Shown: positions 1-46,232 of the stretch, in pieces
How positions within the stretch are numbered: the stretch's first letter is position 1
Layout: every line of letters starts with the position of its first letter
NCBI GenBank assembly: GCA_041753875.1
Contig: CM085480.1
Location: 5,799,958-5,863,957, forward strand
Origin: Acanthopagrus schlegelii
Taxonomy: Eukaryota
DNA: 64,000 bases
Direction of reading: 5' to 3'
Position numbers and translations under genes: made by a program
Notes under the pieces: model-generated
The model's database searches: none
Told to the model about the DNA's origin: nothing
What the model saw: the letters and a program-made list of their open reading frames with translations, nothing else

Positions 1-473
1 TTAAATGAAGAGACACTCTGCAATTATGAATAACTAACGCTAGAGCAGCAGTTTAGCATATTTTGTCATTACAGTTAGAGAACTTAACAAGTCTTCCAAG
101 TTACGCAATAAATACAGTATGTTCTTTAATGAACAAACAGCAGTCGCCTCTACAAAGGCTTGATATTTTGTTGGTCCATGTGTCCAGCCTGACGAGTCGA
201 CGACCTGCCACCGGAGCGTTTGTTTGTCTTTAAAGAAGTTTTTTTTCTGGCCTTTTTGGGGAACTTACTAAAACAACTAATGCTGGACAATCTCTTCAGG
301 AAACACTACAAAGACACCTGTAAAGATGTGGGAGTGACTTGCTAACAATTCAGGACCCAGAAAAATGTGATTTCTCCGAGGCTGATGGACCTCTGTGATG
401 AAACGTTGTGTCAAATCTGTGTTCATGTCAGCGATAAACTTTGTCATGATTCTCTCTGTCACTGCCCTGACAG

Positions 474-630
474 GTACTGGAGAAAAGATGAGCCTAATAA
501 TGGTGGTGGAAATCCCCTGTGGGGTGAGGAGGACTGTGTACACATCAGATCTGGTGTGAATGCCAAAAACAGCTGGAATGATCTGCAGTGTGATACGTCT
601 CTGAAGTGGATCTGTGCCAAAATGTCATGA
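474..630 (+). CDS. Gene A (5' part lies upstream of the window): terminal CRD exon of a C-type lectin. It reads (V)YWRKDEPNNGGGNPLWGEEDCVHIRSGVNAKNSWNDLQCDTSLKWICAKMS*, with EPN and WND motifs.
   Basis: The acceptor is ctgacag|GTACTGG. The frame runs to TGA at 628-630. It is paralogous to exon 6 of genes B to E. C-type lectin hallmarks are present (EPN, GEEDC, WND, C-x-K-W-IC). Confidence 0.8.
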
Positions 631-1763
631 GTTTTGAAAGGACTTTCTTTCTTTTTTTCACGGAAAAGCTGAAATTGATTTGCTTGTTATTAATGTGAAC
701 TAGCTAAATTTAGCATTTGTACCCCTTATTCTATCATAAAGATTGGCTTTTAATAGGGAGATAGTAATAATAATAAAGTTGCTTGATCTCTTATCAGAAA
801 GGTCTGCATGTCATGTGTTGTGGAAATTCTACTTTGTGAGGTTGAGAGTTGCTAAGTCTCCGAAGAACATCAGACTTCAGCGTATGAATCAGATCTCTTT
901 AATAACATGCAGCGTGGAGAGAAGTTAAAAGCGTTCTCTCTCTAACTCTAAAATGTTATTGCTTAAGTACAGAAACAGAGAGGAGGTTACCTTCATTTAC
1001 AACAGCCATAAAACTTTTTCTTTACATAACAAAGACTCTTTGCTGTTTGGGTGTATCCTGTCCTTCCCAGGATAGTGACTCTTTGATGCAACAGATGGGA
1101 CAGCAAATGTCATCTTATCTACATTTCTGTATCTTCCCATGTAGGGGATGTGCCCCCACCTGTAGCTCTCTGACACCTCAATCAACATGACATTCTCCCC
1201 TCCTCCTCTCACATCCTCCTCTGACATCAGTCAATATGCCATTCTTTTCACCAAACAGTACAAAAATCCAACCAAAATCAATGGATCAGTGTAGATTTCA
1301 CTACTAGTTGGTGATCAACAGGCTCAGCACCTCAGAATTTGAGGCTACTCTCAAAATTCCAAAAGACATATTGGATATTTACTCTGGATATTTAATATGG
1401 TTGTTAATGTCCACATTATTAAACATCATGGCCAGGCATCTTTTTTAATTTCAACATAACCCTGTTGGAAATGTGTCACACAAGAAATATAATACAGCAA
1501 AATGACTTTCTTTATTTTATTGCCTCAGGTGACAACTATTCAACTTTAATGGAACAAAATAATTTAACATAACTTAATTAACTAGGTGCAGGTCCCTGTG
1601 AGGTGGGATAAACAAGAGGGTGACACACTGCAGATACTGCTCTGGGGACAGACCTTCACCCTCACCACCTGAGGAGACAGCAAACAAGACCGGCAGGGTG
1701 GGTTATACAGCAACGCAACGCAAAAAATAAGCTGAACCCAACACAACCACACACACGCATAGC

Positions 1764-2451
1764 CTACTTACGTGTCCCTGTCTTCAAGCGCAAGTTAAAT
1801 CCTTGAACATCTGATGCAATGCCACACTTCACATTGGCTCTTGCACAGGAGCATCCTCGGGCACACATGCTTTTCTTGCAGCGGCAGTATTTGCTACGTT
1901 TGAGTTCAGAAGGTTTTGCCTCTTTCAGCATCATGGTTGCCACCAATTTGCCATTGATATGTTGTCTCCCAAAATCAGTGGCAGTTGGTTAGGTTAGCTG
2001 AACCATGTGTGCTCGCTTACACACAGCCAACTGATGCTGGGCTCGGCAAAGGTGCGATAGGAAGGCATCTTCAGTTGGTGGAAGGCAACGCATCTTTCCT
2101 TTGATGCTCACAAAGAGAGGGGCTCGCAGTGCATCTACAGTACCACCAAAGTCACTCCTGTCATAGAGTGACACCATGTATCGCCGTGCAGCTGTTATAA
2201 CCTCCTCCTGAACATTCAGGCTTTCCTCAGGGTCACCGTACCTGCACAGCAGCAGAAGGTCTGTCAGTTGTGTAGACCTGCCTTTTTCCTCTTCTGTACA
2301 GATAGCTCACTGTGTCACATCCAGTAAGTATGTAGGTGCTGAGGAGAAGGCATATAAGATCTGAAGCTGTAACATCATACTTCCCCGCCAGAGTTTCAAG
2401 GATGGCATGAGCAGGTAGCAAGATATCCATCGTCTTCACCCACAGCTTCAA
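1764..2451 (-). pseudogene. Frameshifted ORF fragment of unknown, probably TE-derived, protein with a C-terminal tesmin/TSO1-like CXC motif (CRCKKSMCARGCSCARANVKC)
   Basis: Three consecutive minus-strand ORFs at 2451-2233, 2177-1989 and 1946-1764. The reading frame is restored by a one-nucleotide shift between the first two. The CxCKKSxC....CxC pattern resembles a CXC domain. Confidence 0.35.
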
Positions 2452-2815
2452 TCTACTGAATAAAGCTAATCTGTTGGGGAGGCATGGGCAGCTCAGAACA
2501 AGTCACTTCCTGCAGGATGCACACTTATTCTTGGTGGAATCTTTTGTGATCCTGGTCGCACTGTCCTCTTGTCAGCGGATTGTCAGGTTGAGCTCTCAGA
2601 ACTTTCCTATGAGAAACATGAGGAGGCAGATACCAGGATGTTTGCTCACATTGCATACTGTAAATTATGCACCACAAATGGGCTGTAGTGGTTGCGACAG
2701 ACTCAGATGTGATCATGATGTGCATGTACTGCATCACACACATGGATGGGCTGCAGGAGCTGTGAGAGAAGACGATGGATATCTTCCTACCTGTCCATAC
2801 CATCACAGAAGCTCT

Positions 2816-2841
2816 TGTGTGCGTGTGTGTGTGTGTGTGTT
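2816..2841. repeat. (GT)13 microsatellite
   Basis: Direct reading. It produces the HTHTHT artifact in ORF 2525-3067. Confidence 0.9.
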
Positions 2842-4502
2842 TGAAATCAAAGCAAAATAGAACCTCCACAGCAACATTCCATTCCGGACCTATATTAAGG
2901 GCAAGTTCACAGGACAACAATTCTTCAGTCTGATTTTCCATCGAACGCAGACACAGCCGTGTTATTGTGAGAAAGAAAAGTGAGGAACGACGTGACGATA
3001 TCTGTTTATCAGAGACAGCATTTTTCTGAGACAGAATAGCCAAACGAAATGGGAAAGACTTATCCAAGAGCTCAAAGACACCAAAGAGCAGCTGAGGAAG
3101 CAGAAATCCTTGAAGGGAATGTATCTCAACAGGGGGAAAGGGACCACCAGAGAGCTGGAGCGGCTGAGAAAGTACAGCGATGAGTTAACTCTCCGCAATG
3201 CAAAGATAGCTACTCAGGTGAGGGACAACACCAGGCAGAAGGATGTTATAAAGATTACGAGGAGCTGAAGGTTGCCCATTTAATTAACAAGGAGAAGTTT
3301 CAAGCTGACCTCCAGGCAGAGAGGCATGCGTCTGTTCATGATACATGCATACCAAATGTCATTCATGTATGCATGTAGGAAGGGGAGCTTGGATTTTTAA
3401 AACACCTTTGATCAGTTATCCTCAGGAGGGCATTGGCAATAATTGTACAGTTTCGTGTTAATCTTACCTACCAATGTGGAGATATAAAATACTGCAATTT
3501 AAAGAGCGCTACCTTGTGGTCATCGCCCAAAATTTTGCACAGAGTCTCAGGGGCTCATGGGGAAGTAGTCACCTGAGTTTCATGTCATTCAGACCCACCA
3601 ATGTGGAGATATGCAACACTTCCACTTTGGAACAAAATCTGCAGGAAGTTGTTATTTAATGACTTGAGTATTGTTTGGAATCTCAAAATTATTTTAATAA
3701 CTTTTTGTCAGGAGGGTCAATAGATACTGTGTGTAAAGTTTGGTGCAAATCGGTGAAATCGCCTGAGAGGAGTTGGAAAAAGTAGGTTTGCGAAGTTTTG
3801 CGAATTTGCTGAAAAAAATGGCAGGCAGAAATGGGCGTGGCTTATATCATGAGATTAAGCACAATTCAGTGAATGTATGGATATAAAGCTTTTGAATGTG
3901 TGACAAAGTATAAGAATTATAAGCCAAAACACACTTTCCTTGATTATAGTGCCACCTAATGGTGGAAATTACGGATGGCAATAGATTATGAAATTTTCTG
4001 GCAGGTGTGACGTTTATTCAAAGTTTAGTGAGTTTTGGGGCATGTTCAGGCAGTGAAAAATGCAGACAAAAAATCGACACTGCAAAAACAAAAGGGCCCG
4101 AGCAGGTCTCGACCTGCGAGGTCCCTGTAAAGATGGGTTTTTAATATAAAAATGGGTTCTAGAGGTTCAGCACACATTAATTCACTCCTGTTTTGAGGTA
4201 GTTTAAAGTCAGCGATCCAACATGAAATATTCCATTAATTCATCCTGAAATATATATGCAATGTATCGCAACCATTTCAAGGTTTTAGAAAAGGTTCAAT
4301 TGAAAAGGACCACAGACAGTCGCGTGCCATTACACAGATGTGGAACTTAAAGGTATTGAGCTGGTGGTGGATGTTTCCTGTGCAAGCTATTTTGTCACCT
4401 CTAAAAACTGATGACTTCCTGAAAACCGTGAGAGACGTTGAATCCACCATCATCATATACATGCGCTGACCGTTTAGGAGAGAGCTGGTTACCTTTTGAG
4501 CG

Positions 4503-4572
4503 ATGGAGGAGATCTATGCAAATGTTGATTACAACAAGCCTGTCGACCCAACACCTTCAACAAATCAGACAG
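4503..4572 (+). CDS. Gene B exon 1: cytoplasmic tail MEEIYANVDYNKPVDPTPSTNQT, exits in phase 1
   Basis: ATG at 4503, followed by the donor cag|GTAAGA. The same exon recurs at 18584, 36572 and 50700. Confidence 0.75.
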
Positions 4573-4666
4573 GTAAGAATGCTCACTCACACACATGGGT
4601 TGTGCATATTGATGTTGTGTATTATCCTGTGTTATGATCATGATATCATGTCCTCTCTGTGTTCAG

Positions 4667-4768
4667 GTCCCAGGAGCTCAGAGAGCAGGCTTCATGGAGC
4701 CGTGGTTCTCTGTCTGGGGCTGCTCAGTGTTGTCCTGCTGGTTGGACTCATCAGCCTCGGTGTCACCT
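4667..4768 (+). CDS. Gene B exon 2: signal-anchor/TM segment GPRSSESRLHGAVVLCLGLLSVVLLVGLISLGVT
   Basis: Acceptor tgttcag|GTCC and donor cct|GTGAGT. It is 102 nt long and keeps the phase. The hydrophobic stretch fits a type II membrane anchor. Confidence 0.8.
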
Positions 4769-5178
4769 GTGAGTCTGTTTTTCATCAGTCAGTGTCGGGG
4801 TGAACTTGTGAGAGATGCTCGTGTCTTTATGAATATGATTTTACAGCCATGGTAAATATATTCCAGCAGCTAACGCAGCAAAATGACATATTTGAACATC
4901 TGTGGATGATGAAGAGATGAACCATGTTTGAATTCAGGTGCAGGTTGCTCAGTATTTAGATATTTGCTGGGGAAACATCAGAGCATATTATTATAAAGAC
5001 TGTACATCACTGTTTGGACTTCAAATTCATTTCAGCCCTCAGGTTGATATTTCATAGACTGCATGAGCAGAATGAACATCTTCCTCTGTCAGGACAAATT
5101 AGGATGATTTTGACTCAAATATAGAACCTTTAGTCAGTATTGGTATCAATGCATGAGTGAATCTTGATTTAATTTCAG

Positions 5179-5304
5179 ACCGGGATTTAGCTGCAGAACA
5201 CTCCACTGTCAAAGCCAACCTGACGGAGCGTCTCCAGGCCAGTAATGACAAGCTGTCCTCAGTATCCAAAGAGCTGGACAGACTTCAGAGTTTGTCCAAA
5301 CAGA
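5179..5304 (+). CDS. Gene B exon 3: coiled-coil neck (Y)RDLAAEHSTVKANLTERLQASNDKLSSVSKELDRLQSLSKQ
   Basis: Acceptor aatttcag|AC and donor caga|GTGAGT. It is 126 nt long and phase-consistent. The sequence has a heptad-like leucine pattern. Confidence 0.8.
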
Positions 5305-5894
5305 GTGAGTGCTCGCCTGCCTGTGTGTGTTCTGCACAGCTGTCTGTTAACATGAAGGACAGGAGCTGCCACGGCCTCATTTATAGAACACCTATATACA
5401 GAGACTGTGCTGATCAGACACTCTCACTTCTGTCAGTTACATTTATGGCCGGTTTGACTTGTACCAATAACTTTATTTATTTTTTAATTCCTTCAAGCAG
5501 GAATATATATATAAGTTAAAGCACCTTTTTACTTGGATATCTTAACAAGTTCCAGATTATAGTGTTTTTTTTAATGCTATGTCTTCAGTGTGGCCACTGA
5601 CTCTGTGACAGGATCCTTCCTCAGCTTCACACTTTCACTTCCCTATAAGGTTGTGAACCACCTAATGAAAGTGCAGCCTTTTCTAGGGTGGAATACAATA
5701 TTTTTCGCTCTATGAAGATTGTTCCTTTTTTTCGAGCAATTAAAAAAAATGATCTAGTCAATTACAAGCTTTGTGATTAATTAATCAAAATCAATCACAT
5801 ATGGAGCCGATATTTTAACCTTCAGTCCTCCGGTTGTATACAAATTCATAATTGCACAAAACATTGCTCCTGTAAATAGTTCCATGGGCATTTT

Positions 5895-6300
5895 AATGCA
5901 GCACCACTCCATTGTGGTTTGGTATTAATATCCATGCTAAACTTTTCAAATGCATTCATTCCTGTAGTAGTCTATTCTTTATAGTACATACATTCTAAAT
6001 GTCTATTTTTATTCCAGTGTCATAAAGAGGCCGTCTTTGTAGCAGGAATATTGGTCAGGTCGAAGCATTTATGTGTGCAGCGTTTGAGTCCGGGACAAAT
6101 TTCATCAGGGGGGACAGCAGAGTGTATTGTCATCTTCATTGACATCATTCAGCAGGAAAATTATTCTTGAAATTAAACGTGCAAATAACAACAGAAACAG
6201 CTGACAGGCCCTTACACAAAAAGTGAAGACATAAATTAAAGCGGACATCTGCTGCGACAATTTCTTATATACAGGCCACTCATTTAAAGAAAAAAATGAA
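5895..6300. repeat. Interspersed repeat family (about 400-450 bp)
   Basis: A homologous copy lies at 34840-35290. It differs from this one, so it is not a tandem-duplication duplicate. A fragment lies at 16960-17010. Copy-2 duplicates lie at 37965-38370 and 49090-49140. Confidence 0.55.
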
Positions 6301-7819
6301 ATAATAGATGTCTACCAAACTGAGATAAAAGCAGTCCATGGTTATGTTTTCTAACTTTAGCCGCTATATACATGTAATAAACATGCAAATGAATAGAACA
6401 CTCTTTTAAAGGTCCCATATTATACTGTTTTTCATGTATTTCACACAGCTGTCAGAGGTCCAACAACACTGTATTCGATATGCATTGCCCCAAACCATCC
6501 ATAGTCCTGAATTTCAGCTGTCTAAAAGTCCCTCAATTGAGCTCTACTGAATGCAGGCTGTTCAGGCTGCAGGCTAATGAGCTCTGTCTTGCCTGTTACA
6601 CACCCCTCTCCGGGGGAGGATGACGCTTGCGCTACCGGTAGCATGCACTTGTGTTTTGCAGTGGATGTATGGCTATGGCTCGCGGTGATGCTTTTGTTCA
6701 ACCATACCAGTTTGACCCAGAACTGGACCCAGAAGGAGAGGCTCCTGAGGAAGTACAGACCTTGTGGCTGCAGCAGGATGTTTCAGAATGGTTAGTGTGT
6801 CTGAATGATGTTAGTTTGTTCATATGTATTACAATTACTGCCATGTAGCTAATGGCTAACAGCTAGTGAAAGCTGTGTTTGTCTCCAACACAGTCTCTAA
6901 ACTCTTGGACACTGTTAGCATCGTCTCTGTCTCCAGTCTGCACGTTTCCAGATTTTTTACTGTGACAACCAAGCTCCATCATGAAATTATTAATATTAAA
7001 CTCACTTGAAACACAATTGCATTGTGGACCAAAGCAGAGCTAACGATTAACTAACCAAGTTCCAGCTGACCTCACCACTCGTAGGTAACTGTAAACACTA
7101 TCAAACCGCAGCGACACTTACCTGTGGCTCAGGTGCAGTTGCTGGGTCCGGTATGGTTGGGACTGATCTTTGTGCGAGGGTCAGTGTCGAGGCAAAGCCA
7201 GCTTTGTACTGACACTCGTTACTGAAGCTGTCTGATGTTAAGTGGTTAGCACACACACACAAACTAACACAACCCGTAGCCGGCACGTTGTCGTTAAAAA
7301 ATGAAACGCAACCACTGTCTCCTCTGTTGTTCTGTAGCTGGGACAGAATATAGGCACTGATGTTGATTTTTACAACCAACAATAGAGTAATTTGCGTGTC
7401 TAACTCTGAGCGACGACATTGCGAAACATTGCTATCTTACAGCTGGACACACCGAACTTCACCTTGGGGATGGACGCCCCCCTCTCGGATATCTACTATC
7501 ATTGTGCAGAGGAAGCCTGTCTATGTAAATGGCTACTTTCATTACGTAATGAAAGGAGCTGAATCTCAACAGACTGTAGGAGCGCTGTTTTACCAGTGGG
7601 TGGGCTGCAGAGACCATGCAGGAATCTGGTTTTACCAGTGGGTGGGCTGCAGAGACCATGCAGGACTCGTTTGCTTTCCTCATTCTGGGAGTTGGCAGGC
7701 TCAGGGAGGACCAGCTTATATATGTAGACACCAGAGAAAATGTGTTTTTCATAATATGGGACCTTTAAATGAACGTCAGGCCACTTCTTTGCATTTCAAA
7801 GTCACATGCGTAAAATAAA

Positions 7820-7970
7820 GTTGGATTCTGGAGGTTCCCCACACATTCATTCACTCCTGTTTTGAGGTAGTTTAAAGTCAATGATCCAACATGAAATAAT
7901 CCATTCATTCCTCCTAAAATCAAATCTATATCATCCAACTATTTCAAGGTTTTAGGTTTTATTTTTCGTA
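7820..7970. repeat. Short interspersed element (about 150 bp, SINE/MITE-like) with core CACACATTCATTCACTCCTGTTTTGAGGTAGTTTAAAGTCA
   Basis: The same about 150-bp sequence occurs at 4150-4300 and 39888-40038. A partial copy lies at 36250-36345. The two partial copies sit at the left edges of the duplicated segments. Confidence 0.6.
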
Positions 7971-8369
7971 TTCATTTTTACCTTCGAAGGTGTTAGTTAA
8001 GGTTTGGGTTTTTAGGAAGAAAGAAAACAGCCTTGTAGAATGAACATGTTTTTACAGTTCAAACGGGGAAAGAGGTGGGACCAACTCTTCAACACATCTT
8101 AATGACGTAACAATGCGCAAATCTTCAGTAGAGATCAATACCTTCCATTTCAAAGATTTAAAGGTTTTTGTTACATAAAAAAGATTCTGATTTTGATGAG
8201 TTATTTTGTTCCATTATGATTAAAGCAAATATAAATTAGTAGTGAATATCAGTTTGAACATCAGATAACAACAGTTTCATCCAAAGAACATACACTTAAT
8301 CCACAACCTCCCAAGCTGAGCAACATGGACCTTGTCTGATCTTTAACGTCACTTTGATGCTTTTTCCAG

Positions 8370-8512
8370 AGAGAACTTGTCCTGCAGGATGGCAGATGTT
8401 CAGTTGCACCTGCTATCTCTTCTCCACTAAGACTGATTCTTGGGAAAATGGCAGACAAGACTGCAGAGACAGAGGAGCAGAGCTGGTGACCATTGACACT
8501 GATGAAGAACAG
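8370..8512 (+). CDS. Gene B exon 4: CRD exon 1 (K)RTCPAGWQMFSCTCYLFSTKTDSWENGRQDCRDRGAELVTIDTDEEQ
   Basis: Acceptor ttccag|AG and donor aacag|GTAGTG. It is 143 nt long and ends in phase 0. The CPxGW start and Cys pattern mark a C-type lectin-like domain. Confidence 0.85.
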
Positions 8513-10667
8513 GTAGTGAGGAGTTTTTCCTTACAGAGCCTCGATAGATTGTAAAGTCCTCTGAGACAAATTTGTGACTTGTAAATAAAATTGACTCCTA
8601 CATGCCTTCTTACCTTCCTACATACTTTATGCGCACCTCCGTTTTTGCCCCCCAAAAAAGTAAAGGAACAAATTACTGAGAGACAGAGAGATCACACAAC
8701 ATTAATCAGAAACAGTCAGCGAGCCTGGCAGGAGTTGAGCCACTTGACAGAACGCACAAAAGTGAGATTCTTATGGTGAGTGCACATGAGGACAAGATGG
8801 GCAGCTCCCTCCAGCCAATGTCTCTGTTCTTGGAGGGCGAAAACAACGGCCCTTTGCCAATGTTGCAGGGGTCATGAGAGGAAAGCACAGGCAGGAAGCT
8901 TTTGTTCATTGCTGTGACAGGACGGCTCCTGCTCCGGTGTCAGAGGAGTCAACCTCTGGATCCAAATATTGATACCAACGTTGGTGTTGACTTTGCTCCT
9001 CCTACCCCCTCTTCTGTTTTGATGTTCTGTACTGTCACATGACTCAGCAGCACTAGGCAAACAAGCAGACAGAGCAGAAGAATGGCAGAGAGGAAGAGGA
9101 GCACCACGTGGCTATATTTTCAGGCCGTAAATGAAGCAACTGCAAGCTGTATAATTTGCAAAAAGGCTGTAAGATAAAGTAGTAACACAAGAAGGGCTAC
9201 AGAAACAGAGCCCAGGCCCCCGACCCAGAGGCAGAGGTCATTGGCAGAGGCCTTTCAGTCTGGCAGAGAATATAGTGGTGAAAGTAGTATTTTAGTCATC
9301 TTTGGGATTAGTTAATATTAATTTTCAAAGTGAAACTGGTCTGGTCTTGTATAAATTATGCTAAGACCTTGATATAATAGATTTATCCCATTAAAACACA
9401 TTTAAATGAATACATTTACTGGAATTGAAACAAATATAGTGAATATAATATGAGTCAGATTTGATTGAGTAAAATTTGCCTTTTGTGTTAACTGTGTATG
9501 CTTACTATAATCAAACTTCAAGTGGATGTTTTTCACACTTTATTATTTTATCATTTCACTTAGCTGATTCCCCAAGAGTTTCCGAACACTCTCCCTACAA
9601 AAAATAACACACAGAGGAGCCTGCTGTGCACCAGCAGACTTGTAACCACGGTAACGGAGGATGCCAGATAACCAAGATGTCACATTCAAATAACAACAAC
9701 TTAATCCCTGATTGTTCTATTTCTAGTACCACTAAATTTAAATGACGAGTGCCTCATGCAGATCACTGTAGTAACCCGAGTAACAAACAATATTCCTCAC
9801 ATTGCGGTAGACAGAGTTACCGTGAAATCATTATCCAGTGCAATGTGGAAATGTTAATTCTTTAAACCAATTCAACCACTTCAGAGCGTCCTGAACACAA
9901 ACTAATGTTATAACCACCCAGTCACTTGAAAGGCACTTTTGCTAACCAGTAGCCATAAAGACAGAGCTAAACACTGGAGTTAGTATACAAGCTAACAAGT
10001 TAGATTTACCATCAAGCTTCGGAGCTCGACTGCAACAGGGGTCCTTACTTGTCCAGCAGAAAAGCCACTAACTCTGCGCTGCTCTTGAGTCCTTACAAAT
10101 CCCACAGTTCCCTCCACCTCTGAAATGACGCTCCGATATTTATCCTTGTTTTCTCTGTGGCTCAGTCCAATTCTGTCCTTTTACACTGCTTTTCTTCCTC
10201 AGTCTTCTCATTTCTTCTCTTTGACATGGGCAGTGGTGGGGCATTGTTCAGCTCTGTTGTTGTTGTCTGTTCTCCACCATTATTTACAGTTTAGGCTTGA
10301 ACTTATCTGACCAGGGTGAGAGCAGGCATGGTGCCTGCTTGGGGGAGGGGTACAGCCCAGTACATGCTGCATGAGGGAGGGGGGCTGCCAGCAGCATGCA
10401 CATGAGTGATTGATACTTCTCAGCCACTCCCCTTAGCTGTGATTGGTTGTACTGAGCCATAGCACAATATAACATCTGCAAATCAAATTGGGGCCACTGG
10501 GTGGAGCCACAGACAGTGGATTTGTGCACAGCTGACCTGTATCTTATTCAGGTGCTCATAAAAGTTTGATATGAATGTTATTGTATTGCTCAGATGAATC
10601 CCTATTAAATGTAATATGGTTCAGAATTAACTGGAAATAATGGCTTTATTTCCTTTACTTCGGACAG

Positions 10668-10771
10668 GAATTCATCTCTAAAATCATCAAGGAAGATACT
10701 TGGATTGGTTTGAATGACAGAGACAAGGAGGGGACCTGGAGATGGATAGATGGAACTCCGCCAACTGTGGT
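10668..10771 (+). CDS. Gene B exon 5: CRD exon 2 EFISKIIKEDTWIGLNDRDKEGTWRWIDGTPPTV(V)
   Basis: Acceptor cggacag|GAATTC and donor gtggt|GTAAGG. It is 104 nt long. The WIGL and WxWxDG motifs are present. Confidence 0.85.
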
Positions 10772-10875
10772 GTAAGGCAAACAGTAGCAGACTCTACATT
10801 ACTAGAGTCATTTCTGTCTGATTGAACAATTGTTATCAGAATCCGACTGACTCACTTCCTTTAATAACCTCCTAG

Positions 10876-11032
10876 GTACTGGTTTGAAACACAGCCTGAT
10901 AATGGTGGTGGAAACCCAAAGTGGGGCGAAGAGGACTGTATACACCTCATATTTGGTGAGAATGCCAAAAGGAACTGGAATGATCTGCGATGTGACAAGT
11001 CTCTGAAGTGGATCTGTGCCAAAATGCCTTAG
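10876..11032 (+). CDS. Gene B exon 6: CRD exon 3 YWFETQPDNGGGNPKWGEEDCIHLIFGENAKRNWNDLRCDKSLKWICAKMP*, with QPD and WND
   Basis: Acceptor cctcctag|GTACTGG, with TAG at 11030-11032. The frame is continuous with exon 5. Confidence 0.85.
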
Positions 11033-12420: not shown

Positions 12421-13785
12421 ACATGACCATTGGATTGTCGGTACAGGATCACTTCATTCATTTTTCATTTATGTTTTTTTGTTGTAACCCCCAGTGTTTA
12501 ATTTTATATTTTCCTTATTCCATTATTCATTTAGCCCATTGGTCATAGTGTCTGTGTGAAGCACAAGTAAACCCAGTGCTGACATCCTGACCCTATTCCA
12601 GTGTGGTAGTGCTCTTTGAAGCCAGTGTGGTGTTTTGCGCTGTGCCCACCTTCCATGACTTGATTTTATTAATGTTTGCTGATTCTCTTTCATCAAACAG
12701 CTGCTGAGCCTGAGCGGGTGGCTGACTGATCCCTTTGGTGGCGGTCACCTTCACTTCCTTTTTCAGCAGCGTGCAATGTGGTGCGATCTGATGGTGTGTG
12801 TGTGGGTTTTGGTGTGTCTCATTGGACCCCTTCCCCTCTCCATCAGCTAGTCACCTTTGCTGGGAGGCCCACAGCCCTGCGCACTACACCTTTAATTTTG
12901 ATTATACTTTTGAGTGAAGGTTATGGGGCCAAAAGAATAACTGTGCAATATTGGGCTAAAAGGGTAACTGTGCAATAAAATTTACAAAATCTCCACCAGA
13001 CTATAATACTTTTAAAGAATTGTGTTCATTTAAAGAGATTAAATAAACATGTGTATTTTTGGAAGCACATGAGTGATTTTGGACCTGTGACCTTTTCTGT
13101 GTAGTACCATTTAAAATTTAAGTTCTTTTAAAATGTAAACCCTTGCTGCTTCGCCACAATAAGTAGAGACCATAGGCTAACCCATAAGCCAGAGGTAAAT
13201 GCCTATAGGTGGTTCCAGAAGAGCACAACTCTGGATGAGAGGATTCCTTTCAAGGGGAAATTCAGCAATATCAAGCAATATATGCGAGGCAAGTCAAACC
13301 CATGGGGATTCAAAGTGTGGGTGAGAATTGGAATCTCTGGTGTGACTTCAGTTTCTACCAAGGCAGTGTCAGTGGAATACGAGCCGAATCTGAACTTGGA
13401 TTGTCAGGTCATGCTGTGATGAAGCTTGCTTCCACACTTCCAGATGTAACCTTTTAAGAAGGTACAGAGTACACAGGGGCTTCAATGAAGAGGCCACAAC
13501 AGACAGTGTGAGTCATACATGCCATTTATTTTATTACAACTACAACTCTAAGAACACAGGCAAGAGGAGACAAGAGGCCAGACAGTCATACTAAATATAT
13601 CATTATAAACCCAACACACTTCAGAAAAAACACCACATTACTACAGTGTGCAACCACAAACAATATCACCATCTAAAGTGAACTCCCAGCATCAGCCTCG
13701 CCAGCTGCAGCACTAGAGACAAAAGGAGACAGAATGTTAACACTCTAAAAGAATTCCAGTCCTATAAAAAACTATTATATATATA

Positions 13786-13836
13786 TATATTGATATATAT
13801 ATATATCTATATATATATATTGATATATATATATAT

Positions 13837-13880
<44 letters not shown>

Positions 13881-13892
13881 ATATATATATAT

Positions 13893-13928
<36 letters not shown>

Positions 13929-13997
13929 ATATATATATATATATATATATATTGATATATGAATATATATATATATATATATATTGATATATGAATA

Positions 13998-14048
<51 letters not shown>

Positions 14049-14098
14049 ATATATATATATATATATATTGATATATGAATATATATGTATATATATAT
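13786..14098. repeat. (TA)n / (TATATATATTGA)n compound microsatellite
   Basis: Direct reading. The ORF 13790-13987, which reads IYIYIY..., is an artifact of it. Confidence 0.95.
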
Positions 14099-15199
14099 AA
14101 ATTTAAATTTAAAATGTTTTTTTTATATATATATATTTAAATGAGCATGAGGCCACTTCTTTGCATTTCAAAGTGAACAAATACATTTAAAAGCTCACGT
14201 GTGTTCCTTAGATTAAAAAAAACAAAACATGGCTAATGAATTGTCTCCTGTTGAGACTTAGGTTTCCTCAGCCCAGGTTTGTCTAACGCCGGACAAAACA
14301 ACGTGAACATGGTGTACTATATTTTGGGGCGGTATCTATATTTAAATTTGAGGGCAAATGCTCAGCAACACCCACATGAAATTCAATGAGATCTCACGTG
14401 GTGTGGTGTTTAAAAAAAAAAGAAAGAAAGAAATAGAATGAAAAAAACATAAAGGGAATAATCCCCACTGTAAGTACTAGCACGTTATTTATCCATGCCT
14501 TTAAAATGCCTTGTGTCTTTTATAAGACTTTGTTTCAGGCCTGAGCGGTGGGAGGAGGTGAAGAGAGCGGTGGACTGGGTCTGCTGGGCTGACCGGCTGC
14601 CCATTACTGGTCCACTGAGCAGACACACAAAACGCATAGCTGTAGCCTTGTTAGAGGAGAGAAGGTAAAAACTTTCAACTAGAAATGTTTTCAAACACAA
14701 CTGAACTCATTTGTTTGCCTTACCTGCTGTTAAATAACTAAATACAGTATGCTTTCTGCAGTTAGCAGATTTCTTAAAGTTCCCATGAAACGTATAGTGC
14801 ACTGCTGTCGGCTGCGGCATGGTTGCGTGTCCTGTAAAAACAGCAGCAAGAAAGGGGCACGTCCCGAATATTGATTGACGTTTACAATAGTTGATAGTGC
14901 CTAATGTGCATTACTGAATCTGGCCATACAAGCAATCTAAGTAAACACAGCTGAACCAGTACATGTCCACAGGATCCATCGTTTCCACGCTTACCATTCA
15001 TTGTCTGTGTGTAACCGGATCAACCTTGTGTGTTGAATCAAATGTGTATATAATTACACAAAATCTGTTACTGCCTGACAAGAAAAAAAAATGCCTCCAA
15101 ATCCATTATGTGTAGACTGTGTGTGTAGCTCGAGGCGCCTACTCTTGAATTTCTTCTTCTGTGGTCCTTGCTATAAATGCCCACCTCTGCCCTTTCGTA

Positions 15200-16013: not shown

Positions 16014-17514
16014 TGTCTGTTCCTGTCTAATAATGTATACATGTCAACAGAGTAGCATTTAAAAATAGTAGTTTTTAACAGTTGAAAGCCGCTCGCTTAA
16101 AGTCATGACAAAACGAACTTTTGGGTTTGTTTTTATTTTATTTGTATAGGGGCTGTAGTGGACTGTCTGATGCACATAGAGGTTCTGCTTGTTAATCTTT
16201 CAGTCGGGTATGTTTTGCTGAATATGTGGTTTATTCACTGTAAGATATTTTTGCTATGTAGTCGCCCCTTTGGTACAATTCTCCTGTGGGAGAGGAGCTT
16301 GAGTGGACAGTATTATTTACATGGAGGATCTGCTTGTTGTTCTCTCTGTCAGAATAAACGGGGATCATGTCCAAAGAGGTCCCGGTGTCACAGCATCATT
16401 CAAACCAACACAACGCAGAAGCACACCGGTCACACGTGTAAGCAGCCATTTCAAAAGAGAAGGTGCCGTAATGCCTGCATCTCATTTGCATAAAGTTAAA
16501 GTCTACGCTACTTTATGCAACATCCAGCAGCAGTTTCTCTAGAGACTCCTGAGAAGCAAACCACTGTTGAGCTAGAATTAAGATGGATTCTGCAACTGCC
16601 TGGCATATTTCTCACCTAACATGTCTTCAGAAATGCATTTCAATGAGATGTTCTTAAAATAAGCAAAGGTTTCCAAATGAGCCACCAAATTGGTCTGTTT
16701 TGAAATCCTAAATTTGATTTGTGTTGTGCTGCTCTGGAATGGCAGTGTGCTTTGACAAGATTCAGCTCAAGGAACTGAAACAAATTGTTGTTGAACTATG
16801 AGGCTGCTACACCACTTCTCTCTTTGTTTTTCTCAAGATGGATATAAACGTCACATGTTTCTAATGAGCTACTGACACTTCGTTTGAGCTGTGTCTTTAG
16901 CTGATTGTGATCAGATGTTTCCTTAAGACAAACATGTTTATACAGCAATTAAACCATCTACAGTTTTAATGTCTAATTTTATTCCAGTGTCATGAAGAGG
17001 CCGACTTAAAATAGAAAAATAATTAATAGGAGGTGTACCAAATTAAAATAAAAGCAGTTTATGGGTTGTTTTTTTTACTTTCGCAGTTTTATACATGGAA
17101 TTAACGTTCAAATGACTTGAACACAGTCTTTAAAATTAACTTGTGGCCATTTCTTTGCATTTCAAAATTAAGAAATGAATAAAAAAAATCTTAGATGTTT
17201 CTGTTGTTTTACCATGATGTACTTATTTTATCATCACCAGTTTGTATATATGAAATGTCAGATTTATGTTGATCAATTGCATGTACTTTAGTGGGACTTG
17301 TTTAAGAAGCCCATAAACTACATTTTACATGGAATTAGTGTACGTGCAAATGTAAGTGAACAACCAAACCACGTTTATTCAAATGTTTAATTGGACTTTA
17401 CAGTCTTACAGTCTGGAAATACAGCAGGGATCACAGCCTGATCTGAATCTGTTCATCTTGGTCCATTTATGTGTATAAAGTAAAAATAGTCTATAATGTC
17501 TCCACAGTCACAAT

Positions 17515-18406
17515 AAGATTGAGACACAGCCAAGGCCGAGAGGACAGGCGGAAGAGAGTAGTGACAGCCCATCAGTCTGGGAGGGCTATACGGCAGCATC
17601 TGGGACAAATTTGCACGCATCTACAATCGGACAAAAACTGAATAGCCATGACAATTGTGGGAGGATTGCTAGAAGGAAGCCTCTGCTCTCAAAAAGAACA
17701 AAGCTGACCGTTTCAACTTTGCCAGAGAGCACTTGGACAAACCAGAGACTTTTGGAAGTCCATTCTCTGGACAGATGAGTCATGTGAAGGTCTGGGGCTG
17801 CTTTTCTGCTTCTGGACCTGGATGACTCCATATTATCCAGGGAACCATGAATTCTCAGGCCTGTCAACAAATTCTTGACCAGAATCTCCTGCCATCAGTC
17901 AGGGAGTTGAAGCTGGGGCGAAAATGGATTGTGCAACATGACAATGACCCAAAGCATTCCAGCAAAACGACAAAGGAATAGCTTCAGAGAAACAGGATTC
18001 GTACTCTGGATTGGCTCAGTCAAAGTCTGGACCTTAATCCAATTGAAATGTTGTGGCGAGACCTGAAGAAGTTGGTACATGCCACATGTTCCTCCAACCT
18101 CTCTCAACTGGCTGAGTTCTGCAAGGAGGAGTGGAGGAGCAAACATCCCCATAAACAGATGTGAGAGACTGAATGAGTGAGAGAGTAATGGCTTACTTTT
18201 GCACGTTAGATTTTCATTTTTGTGAAATAAAACTCTTTTGTTGAATTAAATGAAGACATATCCCGTGTGTGTGTGTGTGTGTCCATTATTTTAAATGTCT
18301 GCTTTACAAATTGGGATCTTAATGTATGTTTAATATGGTTATTTTAACGTTTTTTACAAAAACAGTGACTGTCTGGAGGGTTCACAAACTTTCATGCAGC
18401 ACTGTA
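17515..18406 (+). mobile_element. Tc1/mariner (Tc1-like) transposon remnant. It is 5'-truncated, carries internal deletions and stops, and ends with a terminal ...CAGCACTGTA repeat.
   Basis: It translates to ...[112 protein letters not shown]. This is the DDE transposase of the Tc1 family, as in Sleeping Beauty. Confidence 0.85.
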
Positions 18407-18583
18407 CCATTACACAGATGTGGAACTTAAAGATATTGAGCTGGTGGTGGATGTTTCCTGTGCAAACTATTTTCATCACCTTTAAAAACATGTGACTTCC
18501 TGAAAACCGTGAGAGATGTTGAATCCACCATCATCATATACATGCGCTGACCGTTCAGGAGAGAGCTGGTTACCTTTTGAGCG

Positions 18584-18653
18584 ATGGAGGAGATCTATGC
18601 AAATGTTGATTACAACAAGCCTGTCGACCCAACACCTTCAACAAATCAGACAG
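18584..18653 (+). CDS. Gene C exon 1: cytoplasmic tail MEEIYANVDYNKPVDPTPSTNQT
   Basis: Identical to B exon 1. ATG at 18584, with a GTAAGA donor. Confidence 0.75.
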
Positions 18654-18747
18654 GTAAGAATGCTCACTCACACACATGGGTTGTGCATATTGATGTTGTG
18701 TATTATCCTGTGTTATGATCATGATATCATGTCCTCTCTGTGTTCAG

Positions 18748-18849
18748 GTCCCAGGAGCTCAGAGAGGAGGCTTCATGGAGCCGTGGTTCTCTGTCTGGGG
18801 CTGCTCAGTGTTGTCCTGCTGGTTGGACTCATCAGCCTCGGTGTCACCT
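18748..18849 (+). CDS. Gene C exon 2: TM anchor (GPRSSERRLHGAVVLCLGLLSVVLLVGLISLGVT)
   Basis: Same splice sites as B exon 2, 102 nt long. Confidence 0.8.
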
Positions 18850-19258
18850 GTGAGTCTGTTTTTCATCAGTCAGTGTCGGGTGAACTTGTGAGAGATACTC
18901 GTGTCTTTATGAATATGATTTTACAGCCATGGTAAATATATTCCAGCAGCTAATGCAGCAAAATGACATATTTGAACATCTGTGGATGATGAAGAGCTGA
19001 ACCATGTTTGAATTCAGGTGCAGGTTGCTCAGTATTTAGATATTTGCTGGGGAAACATCAGAGCATATTATTATAAAGACTGTACAACACTGTTTGGACT
19101 TCAAGTTCATTTCAGCCCTCAGGTTGATATTTCATAGACTGCATGAGCAGAATGAACATCTTCCTCTGTCAGGACAAATTAGGATGATTTTGACTCAAAT
19201 ATAGAACCTTTAGTCAGTATTGGTATCAGTGCATGAGTGAATCTTGATTTAATTTCAG

Positions 19259-19426
19259 ACTGGGATTTAGCTGCAGAACACTCCACTGTCAAAGCCAACC
19301 TGACGGAGCGTCTCCAGGCCAGTAATGACAAGCTGTCCTCTGTGTCTGAAGAGAGAGACCTGCTGAATGCCAACCTCACTTCAGTGTCCAAAGAGCTGGA
19401 CAGACTTCAGAGTTTGTCCAAACAGA
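19259..19426 (+). CDS. Gene C exon 3: neck, 14 aa longer than in gene B (...DKLSSVSEERDLLNANLTSVSKELDRLQSLSKQ)
   Basis: 168 nt long, which is 126 plus a 42-nt in-frame insertion duplicating two heptads. Same acceptor and donor as B exon 3. Confidence 0.8.
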
Positions 19427-20264
19427 GTGAGTGCTCGCCTGCCTGTGTGTGTTCTGCACAGCTGTCTGTTAACATGAAGGACAGGAGCTGCCACGGCCTC
19501 ATTTATAGAACACCTATATACAGAGACTGTGCTGATCAGACACTTGTATCCCACTCTCACTTCTGTAAATTACATTCATGTACCCATGACTTTATTCATT
19601 CTTTCAATTCATTCAAACAGGAATATATTTAAGTTAATGCACCTTTTTTACTTGGATAGTTTAATAGTTTCCATATCATATATTTTTTTTTAATATAACG
19701 CTATGTCTTCAGTGTGGCCACTGACTGTGACATGATCCTTCTTGAGTTTCACACTTGAAAGACTTTCAATTCCCTATAACATTGTGTGAACCACCCAATG
19801 AGAGTGCAGCCTTTTTAAGGGTGGAGTCCAATTTACAATATTTTCCCCCTCTTGAGACCTTTCCTTATTGCCTTACTTTTTGAGTTCATTGAGTTGGAAA
19901 TGATACTAATGAAATTATTGTGAGGGAGCACAAAAGTATTGCTTCTATTGAAGACCTGAGAGGCAAGTCATCCAAACAGTTAGGGAACTTCAAAAGATAA
20001 CCCCCCTGTAAATATTTTTTCCACCTTGTGTCATAAACATGACAGGGGAAACAATCTAGATTTTAAATAGTCTGTGAAATAGTAAGTGCTGTCAAGCAAT
20101 TTAGAAAATGATCTAATCAATTACAAGCTTTGTGATTAATTAAGCAAATCATGGGGTGTCTTGAGTTAGAGAAGACATCTTATACATCTCTCATCTATTT
20201 ATAGATGGAGCATTCAGCTAGAGTCATTTCCTTGTAATTGCTTGTCTAGCAGCAATACCAAATA

Positions 20265-28829: not shown

Positions 28830-28972
28830 AGAGAACTTGTCCTGCAGGATGGAAGATGTTCAGTTGCACCTGCTATCTCTTCTCTGCAAAGACTGATTCT
28901 TGGGAAAATGGCAGACAAGACTGCAGAGACAGAGGAGCAGAGCTGGTGACCATTGACACTGATGAAAAACAG
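28830..28972 (+). CDS. Gene C exon 4: CRD exon 1 (N/K)RTCPAGWKMFSCTCYLFSAKTDSWENGRQDCRDRGAELVTIDTDEKQ
   Basis: Acceptor tttctag|AG and donor aacag|GTAGTG. It is 143 nt long. The flanking intron sequence is homologous to gene B at 8200-8350. Confidence 0.8.
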
Positions 28973-29249
28973 GTAGTGAGGAGTTTTTCTTTATATTGCT
29001 TAGATTGTGGAGTCCCCTGAGACAAATGTTTGATGTGAATAAAACTGACCCCTGCATGCCTTCTTACCTTCCTAAATACTTTATGTGCACCTCAGTTTTT
29101 GCCCCCCATAAAAGTAAGGGAACAAATTACTGAGAGGCAGAAAGATCACACGACATTAATCAGAAACAAAGCCCAGCAAACCTGGCAGGAGTTCATCCAC
29201 TTGACAAAACACAGATAGGCGAGAGTGTGATGGTCAGTCCATGCGAGGA

Positions 29250-30300
29250 CATTATTCCTCCTGACTCTGGGAGAAGATGAGAATATGATCTAAATAAGTG
29301 AACACAAACCAGTTGTCACTGAGAACATCGTTGACCAAGGCCTGGAAGACAACAGGGGAATTGGTGGGACCAAAAGTCATGACTTGGTACTCTAAATGGC
29401 CGAGAGGATCGTCTACTAATTTCCTTCTCGTATGTGCACCCACTGATAAGCATTTCCAGGATGGCAGCCTGGTGGAGAGGTCCAAACGCTGAGTTGATGA
29501 TAGGGAGGGGGTATTTGTTTTTGACTGTTGTTTCATTCATACCTTTGTAGTCGATGGCCTTATAGATCCATCTTTTTTTAGCCACAACAAAAAAGGAAGA
29601 GTGGTGAATGAGTCTGGTGGGTATGTAAGCTGGTGATATGAGTCTCCTTTGCATCTTGTTTAGGGCGGGTAAGGTTGTAAAGACAGCTTGTAGGAAGAGT
29701 GGCACCAGGAAGTAGGTCAATCTAAGAGTTATATGGTCTGTGAGAGTGCATGGCCCTTGCTAAATATGTCGCTAGGGTTGTGATAGTTGGAGGGAACAGA
29801 GGAAAGGTCATTGTGTTCAGGGGTGGCAGGAGTGGAGTGGTAGCAGGAGGGGGCAGCAGAGTGAAGGCATGGGAATGACGAAATACACTCCATGTGATGA
29901 TTCTTGAAGCTGACCAATCAATATGGGTGTTGTGCATCTAAAGCCACAGGAGACCTAAGACAACTGGGGAGTGAGGTGAAGGGCTTACAACAAAATGTAT
30001 TGTCTCTCTATGAAAATGGAAAGAATGGAAAGAAGGAGAGTGGGTGGAACAGTACAATGAGTGATTTGAGCAGGTAATCTACCACCAAGTGCAAAAACAA
30101 AACCTTGGGAGAAGGAAGAGTCTCAGTGGGAATGTTAGCTTGGCAGACAAAGTCAGAGTCAATTACGTTATTGTCAGTACCCGAGTCAGTCAGTACCTGA
30201 AGTGGGAGAGTCTGTAGCTTGAGGCGAGAGGGCATAGAGGAGGTAGGAGTCAATCGGCTCATCAGCGCCCCGCTGTTGTGTGATGACACTGGTCTTTTAT
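29250..30300 (-). mobile_element. Ty3/gypsy-type LTR-retrotransposon pol fragment with aspartic protease plus the N-terminal RT. It is truncated after YLDHILIFS and carries frameshifts.
   Basis: Minus-strand ORFs read VLTDSGTDNNVIDSDFV, the protease D-S/T-G motif. They also read [66 protein letters not shown], the RT with a YxDD-like box. Confidence 0.8.
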
Positions 30301-31314
30301 GCAGCTATGCGCAGAGGAAGATGGCATGAATCAATCAAATTCCTTTATTGTCCCGCATGGCGCATGGCGCATGGCGTCGGTGTTCGGTCTCCGCTTGGTA
30401 ACAGATTGTTAATGTGGGGTTGAACCCAGAGGCAGTAGGACAGTTCAAAGTCAACATTCTCATGGCCTAGTTCATGAGCCATGAACAAAACAAGAGAGAC
30501 ACAAGGTGTAAACTGCAAAACTGAACCAAGTTATTAGCAAAGTAACCAAACGATACTTAAAGTCCTGATCTGACCTGAACAGGCCGACGCCAACTAAACA
30601 AAAAAAGGTGCTCCCAGGGGTGTTGATTATCACACCAGGAACCTGCAGGACAACAGACAAACATGAGGGAAAACACACACACCCACACACAGCAGGCCCT
30701 GCTAAAGCATGCGGGCCATCACACCATAAGGAATGGAACAAGCTGGCACAGGAGCAGTGAAGAGACAGGGTTAATACAGCAGGGGTTGATGAGATGATGA
30801 CATGCAGGCGTGTCCCTCAGCTGCAGCAGGCACAAGTCAGTGGACACAGACTCACACTAGGGAGGAGCAGGTGATGGAGGAAGGAGGGGGAGCAAACAGA
30901 TGTTATCAAATAACTAGCCCACATGGTAATCGTATGACTTCAGACTAACCAGAACGAAGCATTTTACGACACTCTGTTATACACGTTACTATACATTGAT
31001 CAATGTAAAAAGTTGTAAAATGAGAGTTAGAATAGTTTGTCACTAAATACGGATTGGTGATAAAAGTGTCTCCGTGTTCGATGTGATGAAGTTTGGTTTC
31101 ATTTGGTCTCATTTGGACACTTGTTAGCAACTGACTTTCTAAGACATGTAAACACTTATAAATCAAATGTAAAGTAAAAATATTTATTATATTCTGTTGT
31201 ACTCATAAAAGTTTGAAGTGAATGTTACTGTACTGTTCAGATGAATCCATATTAAATTTGATATGGTTCAGAATTAAATAGAAACAATGGCTTTATTTCC
31301 TTTACCTTGAACAG

Positions 31315-31421
31315 GAGTTAATCTCTAAATTCATCAAGGAAGATACTTGGATTGGTTTGAATGACAAAGACGAGGAGGGGACCTGGAGATGGATAGATGG
31401 AACTCCATCACCGACTGTGGT
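31315..31421 (+). CDS. Gene C exon 5: CRD exon 2 ELISKFIKEDTWIGLNDKDEEGTWRWIDGTPSPTV(V)
   Basis: Acceptor gaacag|GAGTTA and donor gtggt|GTAAGG. It is 107 nt long, one codon more than in gene B. Confidence 0.8.
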
Positions 31422-31532
31422 GTAAGGCAAAGAGAAGATGTTCAACACCTGATTTCAATATAGACACATATACAATGTTTGAATAATAGTTATCAGAATC
31501 AGACTGACTCACTTCCTTTAATAACCTCCTAG

Positions 31533-31690
31533 GTACTGGTTGGAAACACAGCCTGATAATGGTGGTGGAGACGCAAAGTGGGGCGAAGAGGACTGTATAC
31601 ACCTCGTATTTGGTGTGAATGTAAAAAAAAAACTGGAATGATGTGCGGTGTGATAAGCCTTTGAAGTGGATCTGTGCCAAAATGCCTTAG
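31533..31690 (+). pseudogene. Gene C exon 6, frameshifted. It reads YWLETQPDNGGGDAKWGEEDCIHLVFGVNVKKK then shifts to a premature TGA at 31639-31641. The homologous stop is at 31688-31690.
   Basis: At 31621-31633 the sequence is GT followed by 10 A's then CTGG. The intact copy at 63730-63745 reads gtcaaaaaaaactgg. One extra A plus a C-to-A change shifts the frame. This removes the WND motif and the last conserved Cys residues. Confidence 0.7.
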
Positions 31691-36571: not shown

Positions 36572-36641
36572 ATGGAGGAGATCTATGCAAATGTTGATTA
36601 CAACAAGCCTGTCGACCCAACACCTTCAACAAATCAGACAG
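36572..36641 (+). CDS. Gene D exon 1: the duplicate of gene B in copy 2 of the duplicated segment
   Basis: Same sequence and splice sites as 4503-4572, offset about 32068. Confidence 0.75.
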
Positions 36642-36735
36642 GTAAGAATGCTCACACACACACATGGGTTGTGCATATTGATGTTGTGTATTATCCTGTG
36701 TTATGATCATGATATCATGTCCTCTCTGTGTTCAG

Positions 36736-36837
36736 GTCCCAGGAGCTCAGAGAGGAGGCTTCATGGAGCCGTGGTTCTCTGTCTGGGGCTGCTCAGTGTT
36801 GTCCTGCTGGTTGGACTCATCAGCCTCGGTGTCACCT
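36736..36837 (+). CDS. Gene D exon 2: TM anchor
   Basis: Homolog of 4667-4768. Confidence 0.8.

Positions 36838-45821: not shown

Positions 45822-46232
<411 letters not shown>

Follow-up and report, generated by a model that had tools for sequence, protein, structure and literature searches.

Probable recurrent gene conversion of the tail, anchor and neck module among tandemly arrayed C-type lectin genes of Acanthopagrus schlegelii

The 64-kb window analysed here, by which the whole stretch is meant (Acanthopagrus schlegelii, contig CM085480.1, positions 5,799,958 to 5,863,957), is teleost DNA with 40% guanine plus cytosine (GC) and no Ns, and contains genes for type II transmembrane C-type lectins, arrayed in tandem in the order A, B, C, B', C'. 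A module of ~1 kb at the 5' end of these genes, which encodes the tail, membrane anchor and neck, has very probably undergone recurrent non-allelic (ectopic) gene conversion, from which the part encoding the carbohydrate recognition domain (CRD) escapes. Four observations carry this reading, namely a two-sided step in the identity between paralogs, an identity that includes neutral sites, the incongruence between trees of the tract and trees of the CRD, and the recurrence of the pattern across three genera. The CRD exons and the rest of each gene, by contrast, keep an old, paralog-specific identity that is shared between species. Coordinates are those of the window, and all mapped features are given on its forward (+) strand.

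Genes B and C were each modelled explicitly as six exons with canonical splice sites. Gene B (exons 4503-4572, 4667-4768, 5179-5304, 8370-8512, 10668-10771 and 10876-11032) has an intact open reading frame (ORF) of 233 amino acids, and gene C has exons at 18584-18653, 18748-18849, 19259-19426, 28830-28972, 31315-31421 and 31533-31690. The CRD is split over exons 4-6 (8370-11032 in B, with QPD and WND motifs, and 28830-31690 in C). The 5' ends of the two genes share a colinear block of homology (B 4324-5720; C 18404-19860), and within this block lies a tract of ~1.0 kb, reaching from ~90 nt upstream of the ATG to ~115-130 nt inside intron 3, in which the two genes are nearly the same. In B the tract occupies 4412-5433 and takes in the 3' part of the 5' untranslated region (UTR), exons 1-3, introns 1-2 and the beginning of intron 3; in C it occupies 18493-19566 and includes a 42-nt neck segment (19339-19380) and an 11-nt segment (19541-19551). 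Inside it B and C differ at 11 of 1021 sites (1.1%; 98.9% identity), by a single 1-nt indel and by the 42-nt neck indel, and the tail, transmembrane (TM) segment and neck of the two proteins are nearly identical. The corresponding tracts of B' (36481-37501) and C' (50609-51671) lie in a second 32-kb unit, in which B' and C' are copies of B and C.

On both sides the tract gives way to older and more diverged homology. The left flank (B 4324-4411; C 18404-18492) is ~9% diverged, with 8 mismatches in 88 nt and six fixed differences clustered at 4386-4411, and the right flank, in intron 3 (B 5434-5720; C 19567-19860), is 16-17% diverged and rich in indels. The core of the tract stops at 5417, with the beginning of an 11-nt indel that only B orthologs have. 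Past ~5720 the colinearity is lost, and the two genes resemble each other only in an island of ~45 nt (about 5745-5790 vs 20104-20150), which lies after a ~250-nt insertion in C. An earlier note on this DNA, made from the sequence alone, had described 4328-5800 and 18414-20160 as matching almost base for base, apart from the neck indel and a few single-nucleotide differences. That description is accurate for 4412-5433 and 18493-19566, provided that the 11 substitutions and the additional 1-nt indel are counted in, but it does not extend to the whole interval, as identity is ~91% over 4324-4411 and ~83-84% over 5434-5720.

The step in identity is clearest at sites that do not encode protein. 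In the tract, B and C differ at 8/723 noncoding positions (1.1%), compared with 251/1568 (16.0%) in the other alignable noncoding sequence (Fisher p = 1e-33), and the proportion of synonymous sites that differ (pS) is 0.014 in exons 1-3 vs 0.143 in exons 5-6. Introns 1 and 2 are as alike as the exons, so coding constraint does not account for the pattern. Outside the tract, divergence reaches 15-22% in the introns around exons 4-6 and 16% in the 3'UTR, and the CRD exons themselves differ by 3.5% (exon 4), 6.7% (exon 5) and 8.9% (exon 6), with a mean of 6.4%. The figure of about 10% that had been put forward for the CRD exons is therefore approached by exon 6 only, and uniform divergence along the gene pair, which the earlier note had opposed to a mosaic, is not observed.

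These values also bear on the idea that B and C are young duplicates of a whole gene, whose 3' halves evolved fast under positive selection on the CRD in a birth-and-death process with no conversion. Such a history is extremely improbable. The ratio of nonsynonymous to synonymous differences in the CRD is indeed fairly high (pN/pS of 0.65 for B vs C'), and the changes between C and C' cluster in the sugar-binding loop, as would be expected under this scheme; however, the excess divergence is found at neutral sites (the introns, the 3'UTR and the synonymous sites of exons 5-6), and the exon-5 block of B is nearer to that of a Sparus aurata gene (sau_6, 8.6%) than to that of C (11.3%), which makes the 3' halves old.

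Close relatives of these lectins were found in A. latus, Pagrus major and S. aurata. The A. latus locus L001 is orthologous to positions 1-10578 of the window and also holds the 5' module of gene A, which in A. schlegelii lies outside the window. Over L001 the two species differ by 2.37% substitutions (0.8-4.8% per 500-nt window). The six Acanthopagrus modules (four from A. schlegelii, two from A. latus) are 0.7-1.5% apart in the tract, the A. latus gene A module standing at this same distance from the modules of B and C, and the A and B genes of A. latus have private variants in common (B coordinates 4765, 4819 and 4845). The A. latus pair shows its own two-sided step, with 6.6% divergence over 4150-4436 (287 nt) and about 0.4% over 4436-5414, after which homology is lost. 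The 11-nt indel at 5418 is common to B, B' and A. latus B, and thus marks the point where orthology returns.

The array of S. aurata (142 kb, L002+L003) contains seven complete modules, which diverge by 2.7-4.8% among themselves and by 5.6-7.4% from those of Acanthopagrus. The homogenised unit of this species spans about -100 to +1100, and its limits are similar to those in Acanthopagrus. The 5' modules group by species (100% bootstrap), whereas the exon-5 block groups by CRD type across species (100% bootstrap): A. schlegelii B is nearest to sau_6 and A. latus A to sau_2/5 (8.3%), while A-type and B-type blocks are ~20% apart. A comparison of the phylogeny of the 5' module with that of the CRD across paralogs and related species, the check that the earlier note had proposed, consequently reveals two incongruent histories. 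Among paralogs, the tract introns are 0.7% apart in Acanthopagrus and 3.6% apart in S. aurata, but they differ by 6.8% between these genera and by ~10% from P. major. They are therefore free to evolve between lineages and are homogenised within them.

The same comparison makes it very improbable that purifying selection on the whole module, including regulatory elements or a noncoding RNA (ncRNA) in introns 1-2, has preserved the tract without any exchange of sequence. Constraint of this kind would agree with an ortholog divergence in the tract (0.9%) that is below the regional mean of 2.4%, and with the intron-1-retaining isoforms annotated in related species. Nevertheless, it is contradicted by introns that diverge by 6.8% to ~10% between genera and by 0.7% or 3.6% within genomes, and the species-specific variants that paralogs have in common would not arise from constraint, which does not produce clustering by species. 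Moreover, an Rfam scan of the tract for an embedded ncRNA returned no family, with two chance-level matches only (21-22 bits vs gathering scores of 47-83).

Two of the S. aurata genes display the reverse mosaic. Between sau_2 (37014/44770) and sau_5 (91310/100642) the exon-5 blocks differ by 0.0% and the exon-4 blocks by 1.0%, while the 5' modules differ by 3.7%, which shows that exchange of the module does not depend on the gene body. A single unequal crossover or partial segmental duplication, in which the 5' end of one paralog was joined to the CRD exons of another at one breakpoint in intron 3, could not produce this pair, nor could it give the seven S. aurata genes, and the three or more paralog types of Acanthopagrus, their species-specific modules. 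Unequal crossover does act in the module, as the left junction of the 32-kb duplication (about 4487-4500; 9.5% divergence upstream, 0.6% downstream) attests, and the left flank of B and C is short (88 nt), being cut by a Tc1 element. An explanation by one such event is nonetheless improbable because there are two switch points: the identity of B and C falls again on the 5' side (8/88 mismatches over 4324-4411), and in A. latus the 287-nt flank upstream of A and B is 6.6% diverged vs ~0.4% in the tract. Between the two possibilities that the earlier note had raised, gene conversion and a secondary duplication of the module onto foreign CRDs, conversion is the better fit, owing to the diverged homology on both sides of the tract (9% and 16-17%), the switch points of A. 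latus A and B, and the recurrent homogenisation seen across species.

Next to no probability attaches to an artefact of assembly or polishing, through which the reads of one paralog overwrote another in the repetitive array. Tandem arrays are prone to collapse, and the annotated A. schlegelii proteins P0001 and P0005 are each one residue off the window genes, so assemblies or haplotypes do differ. Against this, every one of the four copies has private substitutions inside the tract, the indels of 42 nt and 11 nt are specific to particular copies, and the pattern is repeated in the independent assemblies of A. latus and S. aurata.

The signature of interlocus conversion in this array hence consists of a bounded tract set in diverged homology, identity at neutral sites, phylogenetic incongruence (bootstraps of 100% vs 0%) and evolution of the tract between species. 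Several points weigh on the other side. The conversion events are inferred from sequence comparison, and donor and recipient are not assignable. A footprint of GC-biased conversion was looked for and is absent, the GC content being 40.0% both in the tract introns and in the remainder of intron 3. The left flank of B and C offers 88 nt before the Tc1 breakpoint, and the second switch point of this pair amounts to eight mismatches. Finally, the tract (4412-5433 vs L001 27985-29048) is less diverged between the two Acanthopagrus species than the regional mean (0.9% vs 2.4%, Poisson p ~ 1e-4); the value falls inside the range of 0.8-4.8%, and divergence is as low as 0.8-1.2% in other 500-nt windows too. 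The identity of the tract may thus be raised somewhat by mild constraint, by heterogeneous rates or by effects after speciation.

The Tc1-like element that limits the left flank is a decayed, 5'-truncated member of the Tc1/mariner group (17480-18406), whose 3' inverted repeat (18378-18404) is followed by TA. It adjoins the start of the homology between B and C, which in gene C begins at CCATTACACAGATGTGGAAC. The inverted repeat and TA at 18378-18406 confirm that the homology of gene C opens right behind the 3' terminus of a Tc1, as had been noted before; the motif CCATTACACAGATGTGGAAC reported for this abrupt start is likewise correct, but its positions are 4327 and 18407 rather than 4328 and 18414. 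The 3' inverted repeat occurs twice (0 expected), a second copy of the element being located upstream of C' and ending at 50521, and the transposase remnants match DDE_3 (E = 2.3e-8) and HTH_Tnp_Tc3_2 (E = 2.1e-5). Searches for a 5' inverted repeat of the element found none, and what lies upstream of it in C does not match the region upstream of B. Due to the 5' truncation, the original promoter flank of gene C is not recoverable. In A. latus, however, the homology between paralogs extends upstream to about B coordinate 4150, and the abrupt start in C is therefore the breakpoint of the Tc1 insertion and not a conversion boundary.

Mechanistically, the homogenisation would proceed through double-strand-break repair with a neighbouring paralog as the template. 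The module would then behave as a self-sustaining island, in which high identity favours more exchange, while the flanks, 16% diverged, suppress it. The 3' boundary might in addition be helped by selection against conversions that overwrite the specialised CRDs (EPN in A, QPD in B/C).

The array also contains a young tandem segmental duplication, in which 4152-31793 matches 36253-63911 with 264 substitutions in 27103 sites (0.97%); the two units occupy 4152-36252 and 36253-64000. This 32-kb duplication is younger than the split between A. latus and A. schlegelii (0.97% vs 2.37%). At its left junction (36253-36570), B and B' differ by ~9.5% over B 4150-4490 and by 0.6% from about 4500 onward. 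The junction (B coordinate about 4487-4500) therefore lies within the 5' module, a short way 5' of the ATG, which is consistent with unequal crossover between paralogous modules, and on the evidence of this junction the module hosts crossovers as well. The relative timing follows from aligning the four copies (B, B', C and C') with one another. In the tract, B/B' and C/C' are separated by four fixed substitutions (4874, 5007, 5149 and 5264) and the 42-nt indel, vs ~40 fixed substitutions in the 285-nt right flank, and each of the four copies carries private changes. The four fixed differences place the last homogenisation of B and C before the 32-kb duplication. Its estimated age is similar to that of the duplication and comes to some 6% of the time since B and C split (about 1% vs about 16%). 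At two further sites, 4475 and 4587, the patterns would agree with parallel mutation or with short exchanges that postdate the duplication.

A more comprehensive interpretation is possible, although rather doubtful as a whole. The 5' module would be a long-lived, self-perpetuating recombination island whose boundaries are conserved across Sparidae; it would place the same tail, anchor and coiled-coil neck on heads that differ in sugar specificity (EPN in A, QPD in B/C), give rise to the unequal crossovers by which the array grows, with the junction of the 32-kb duplication lying inside it, and be maintained by selection. Were this the case, the common neck might permit mixed oligomers or the use of one adaptor or trafficking route, and the array would be a counterpart, with reversed polarity, of the merohomogenization of the lectin-like receptors of natural killer (NK) cells. 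The more limited hypothesis of the earlier note, in which shared signalling and trafficking are coupled to distinct ligand-binding heads, is compatible with the near-identical tail, TM segment and neck and with the EPN and QPD motifs. Stated as a prediction, paralogs of different glycan specificity would share signalling, trafficking or oligomerisation properties.

The array is a clean and well-bounded case of concerted evolution of part of a gene in a teleost innate-immune lectin array. Its mechanism is a textbook one, and the case refines understanding. The tail, TM segment and neck can pass freely from one paralog to another, while the lineages of the sugar-binding heads stay apart and extend across species. 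Phylogenies and orthology calls based on full-length proteins of these CLEC4E-like and CD209-like genes will consequently be misleading, with the signal of orthology residing in CRD exons 5-6 only, and the 5' module is a likely breakpoint for changes in the copy number of the array. No specific description of conversion in teleost CLEC4/CD209-like arrays was found in the literature searched.

The nearest known process is merohomogenization, described for the paired C-type lectin-like leukocyte receptors KLRC/NKG2, KLRA/Ly49, KLRB and KLRI and for DCIR/DCAR in APLEC (Fossum et al., 2011; PMC3210942). In those opposing (activating and inhibitory) receptors, homogenisation affects the exons of the ligand-binding domain, whereas the stalk, the transmembrane part and the signalling part remain distinct (Fossum et al., 2011; PMC3210942). 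Both cases involve post-speciation concerted evolution by gene conversion limited to part of tandem lectin-type receptor genes, and both are demonstrated in the same way, by paralogs that are closer than orthologs for some exons only. However, the polarity in the porgy array is reversed, as the tail, TM segment, neck and introns are homogenised and CRD exons 5-6 have diverged, the tails are the same rather than opposing, and the porgy genes are not known as activating and inhibitory pairs.

In the major histocompatibility complex (MHC), the exons of class I and class II genes that do not encode the peptide-binding part evolve in concert, and the peptide-binding exons keep old lineages. The likeness consists in a homogenised structural or anchoring part beside a ligand-binding part with divergent trans-species lineages, but fold and gene family are different, and diversity in the MHC is largely allelic, whereas that of the porgy array is found between fixed tandem paralogs. 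The human G-gamma and A-gamma globin genes are said to have undergone a 5' gene conversion (reportedly the work of Slightom et al. in 1980), leaving ~1.5 kb at the 5' end near-identical up to a boundary in an intron at a (TG)n hotspot. These, too, would be tandem paralogs with a 5' part near-identical in exons and introns, a diverged 3' part and an intronic boundary. In contrast to the simple-sequence (TG)n of the globin boundary, the porgy tract has no such repeat at 5417-5433, and the globin case concerns two genes, while the porgy case is family-wide across several genera.

The encoded proteins begin with a short N-terminal tail (MEEIYANVDY...), which is followed by a single hydrophobic anchor, a heptad-like neck rich in leucine and a C-terminal CRD. 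Their one Pfam domain is Lectin_C (E = 1.4e-23 for gene B and 4.1e-21). The hydrophobic stretch AVVLCLGLLSVVLLVGLISLGV and the leucine-rich neck were read from the translation as a putative anchor and a putative coiled-coil neck, and the transmembrane segment so read from the sequence has no charged residue. Array genes carry CLEC4E-like or CD209-like labels in automatic database annotation, and with their CRD motifs, tail, anchor and neck the proteins are predicted group II type II transmembrane C-type lectin receptors (CD209/CLEC4/ASGR-like). The upstream paralog, gene A, enters the window with its last exon (about 472-630). Its sugar-site motifs are EPN...WND, and those of B and C are QPD...WND. 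EPN corresponds to the mannose/fucose type and QPD to the galactose type, so that the predicted heads differ on a common, homogenised tail and neck. An A. latus ortholog of gene C is not annotated; a homolog search with the C' protein gave only P0007 (A) and P0012 (B).

In gene C, exon 6 contains a +1 frameshift in a run of ten A (31623-31632), where C' (about 63742-63750) has CAAAAAAAA. The frameshift truncates the CRD before the WND motif, and only the duplicate C' is intact, reading LEKQPDNGGRSQK; the exon-6 peptide previously quoted for gene C had skipped this frameshift. It is either a pseudogenising mutation or an assembly error in the homopolymer. The CRD exons of C and C' differ at 13 of 404 sites (9 nonsynonymous), vs 0 of 404 for B and B'. 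The changes are clustered, in exon 4 (SAK vs STE; 28869-28872 vs 60893-60897) and in exon 6 (TQPDNGGGDAK vs KQPDNGGRSQK; 31578-31590 vs 63697-63709), the latter beside the sugar-binding QPD. The loop variant of C' has three nucleotides in common with one P. major paralog, and that of C has one in common with another. This pattern suggests micro-conversion from other paralogs or diversifying selection.

Exon 4 might be taken as a second conversion tract of B and C. Between B and C' it has 0 synonymous differences at 28 synonymous sites, while its flanking introns are 15-16% diverged; but the exon is strongly conserved in every paralog and species compared, and constraint would account equally well for its similarity. 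In A. latus, the exon-4 block of A and B, intron flanks included, differs by 3-4% vs ~20% in the exon-5 block, which suggests an exchange of the exon-4 block between these two genes.

The 42-nt neck segment (14 amino acids) is present in C and C' and missing in B (after 5258) and B'. As A. latus B keeps it, the loss is a deletion specific to B/B' of A. schlegelii. Extra copies of the whole neck exon, up to four, are present in S. aurata genes (L002+L003 14621-15156, 28195-28653 and 72483-72835) and in P0004. Together with the indel, they show that neck length is variable in this family. Neck-length variation is also known from the type II C-type lectins DC-SIGN and L-SIGN (CD209/CLEC4M), whose necks are repetitive and of variable length; in CLEC4M, a 23-amino-acid VNTR (variable number tandem repeat) in one exon is polymorphic in humans. 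The porgy variation differs from a VNTR in consisting of a single 14-residue deletion fixed in B/B' and of whole-exon duplications.

Some observations concern the annotated proteins. Isoforms with an alternative ATG (MQMLITTSLST...; P0009, P0011, P0012 and P0066, from A. latus and S. aurata) continue across the 94-nt intron 1 as far as exon 2, so that the MEEIYANV tail is replaced, and an equivalent ORF, running through exon 1, intron 1 and exon 2, is present in the window (4518-4667). Among the A. schlegelii proteins, P0001 combines Arg30 of B' with Arg59 of B, a single-residue difference from the window models; P0005 has E6 vs G6 of C'; and P0004 joins a C'-type CRD to two neck exons. These mismatches suggest either that the annotation stems from another haplotype or assembly, or that the array has more copies than those in the window.

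Between B and C, the intergenic sequence includes an AT-rich, microsatellite-like complex block (13763-14142 and, in the second unit, 45820-46276) with many direct and inverted self-matches; no other part of the duplicated unit is as divergent or as rich in indels. Directly upstream of gene B lies an element of ~150 nt (4142-4288), conserved also upstream of A. latus gene A. It recurs with 84% identity at 7811-7955, in intron 3 of B and ~400 nt before exon 4, as well as at 39879-40023, and may be an interspersed repeat or the relic of a former gene start.

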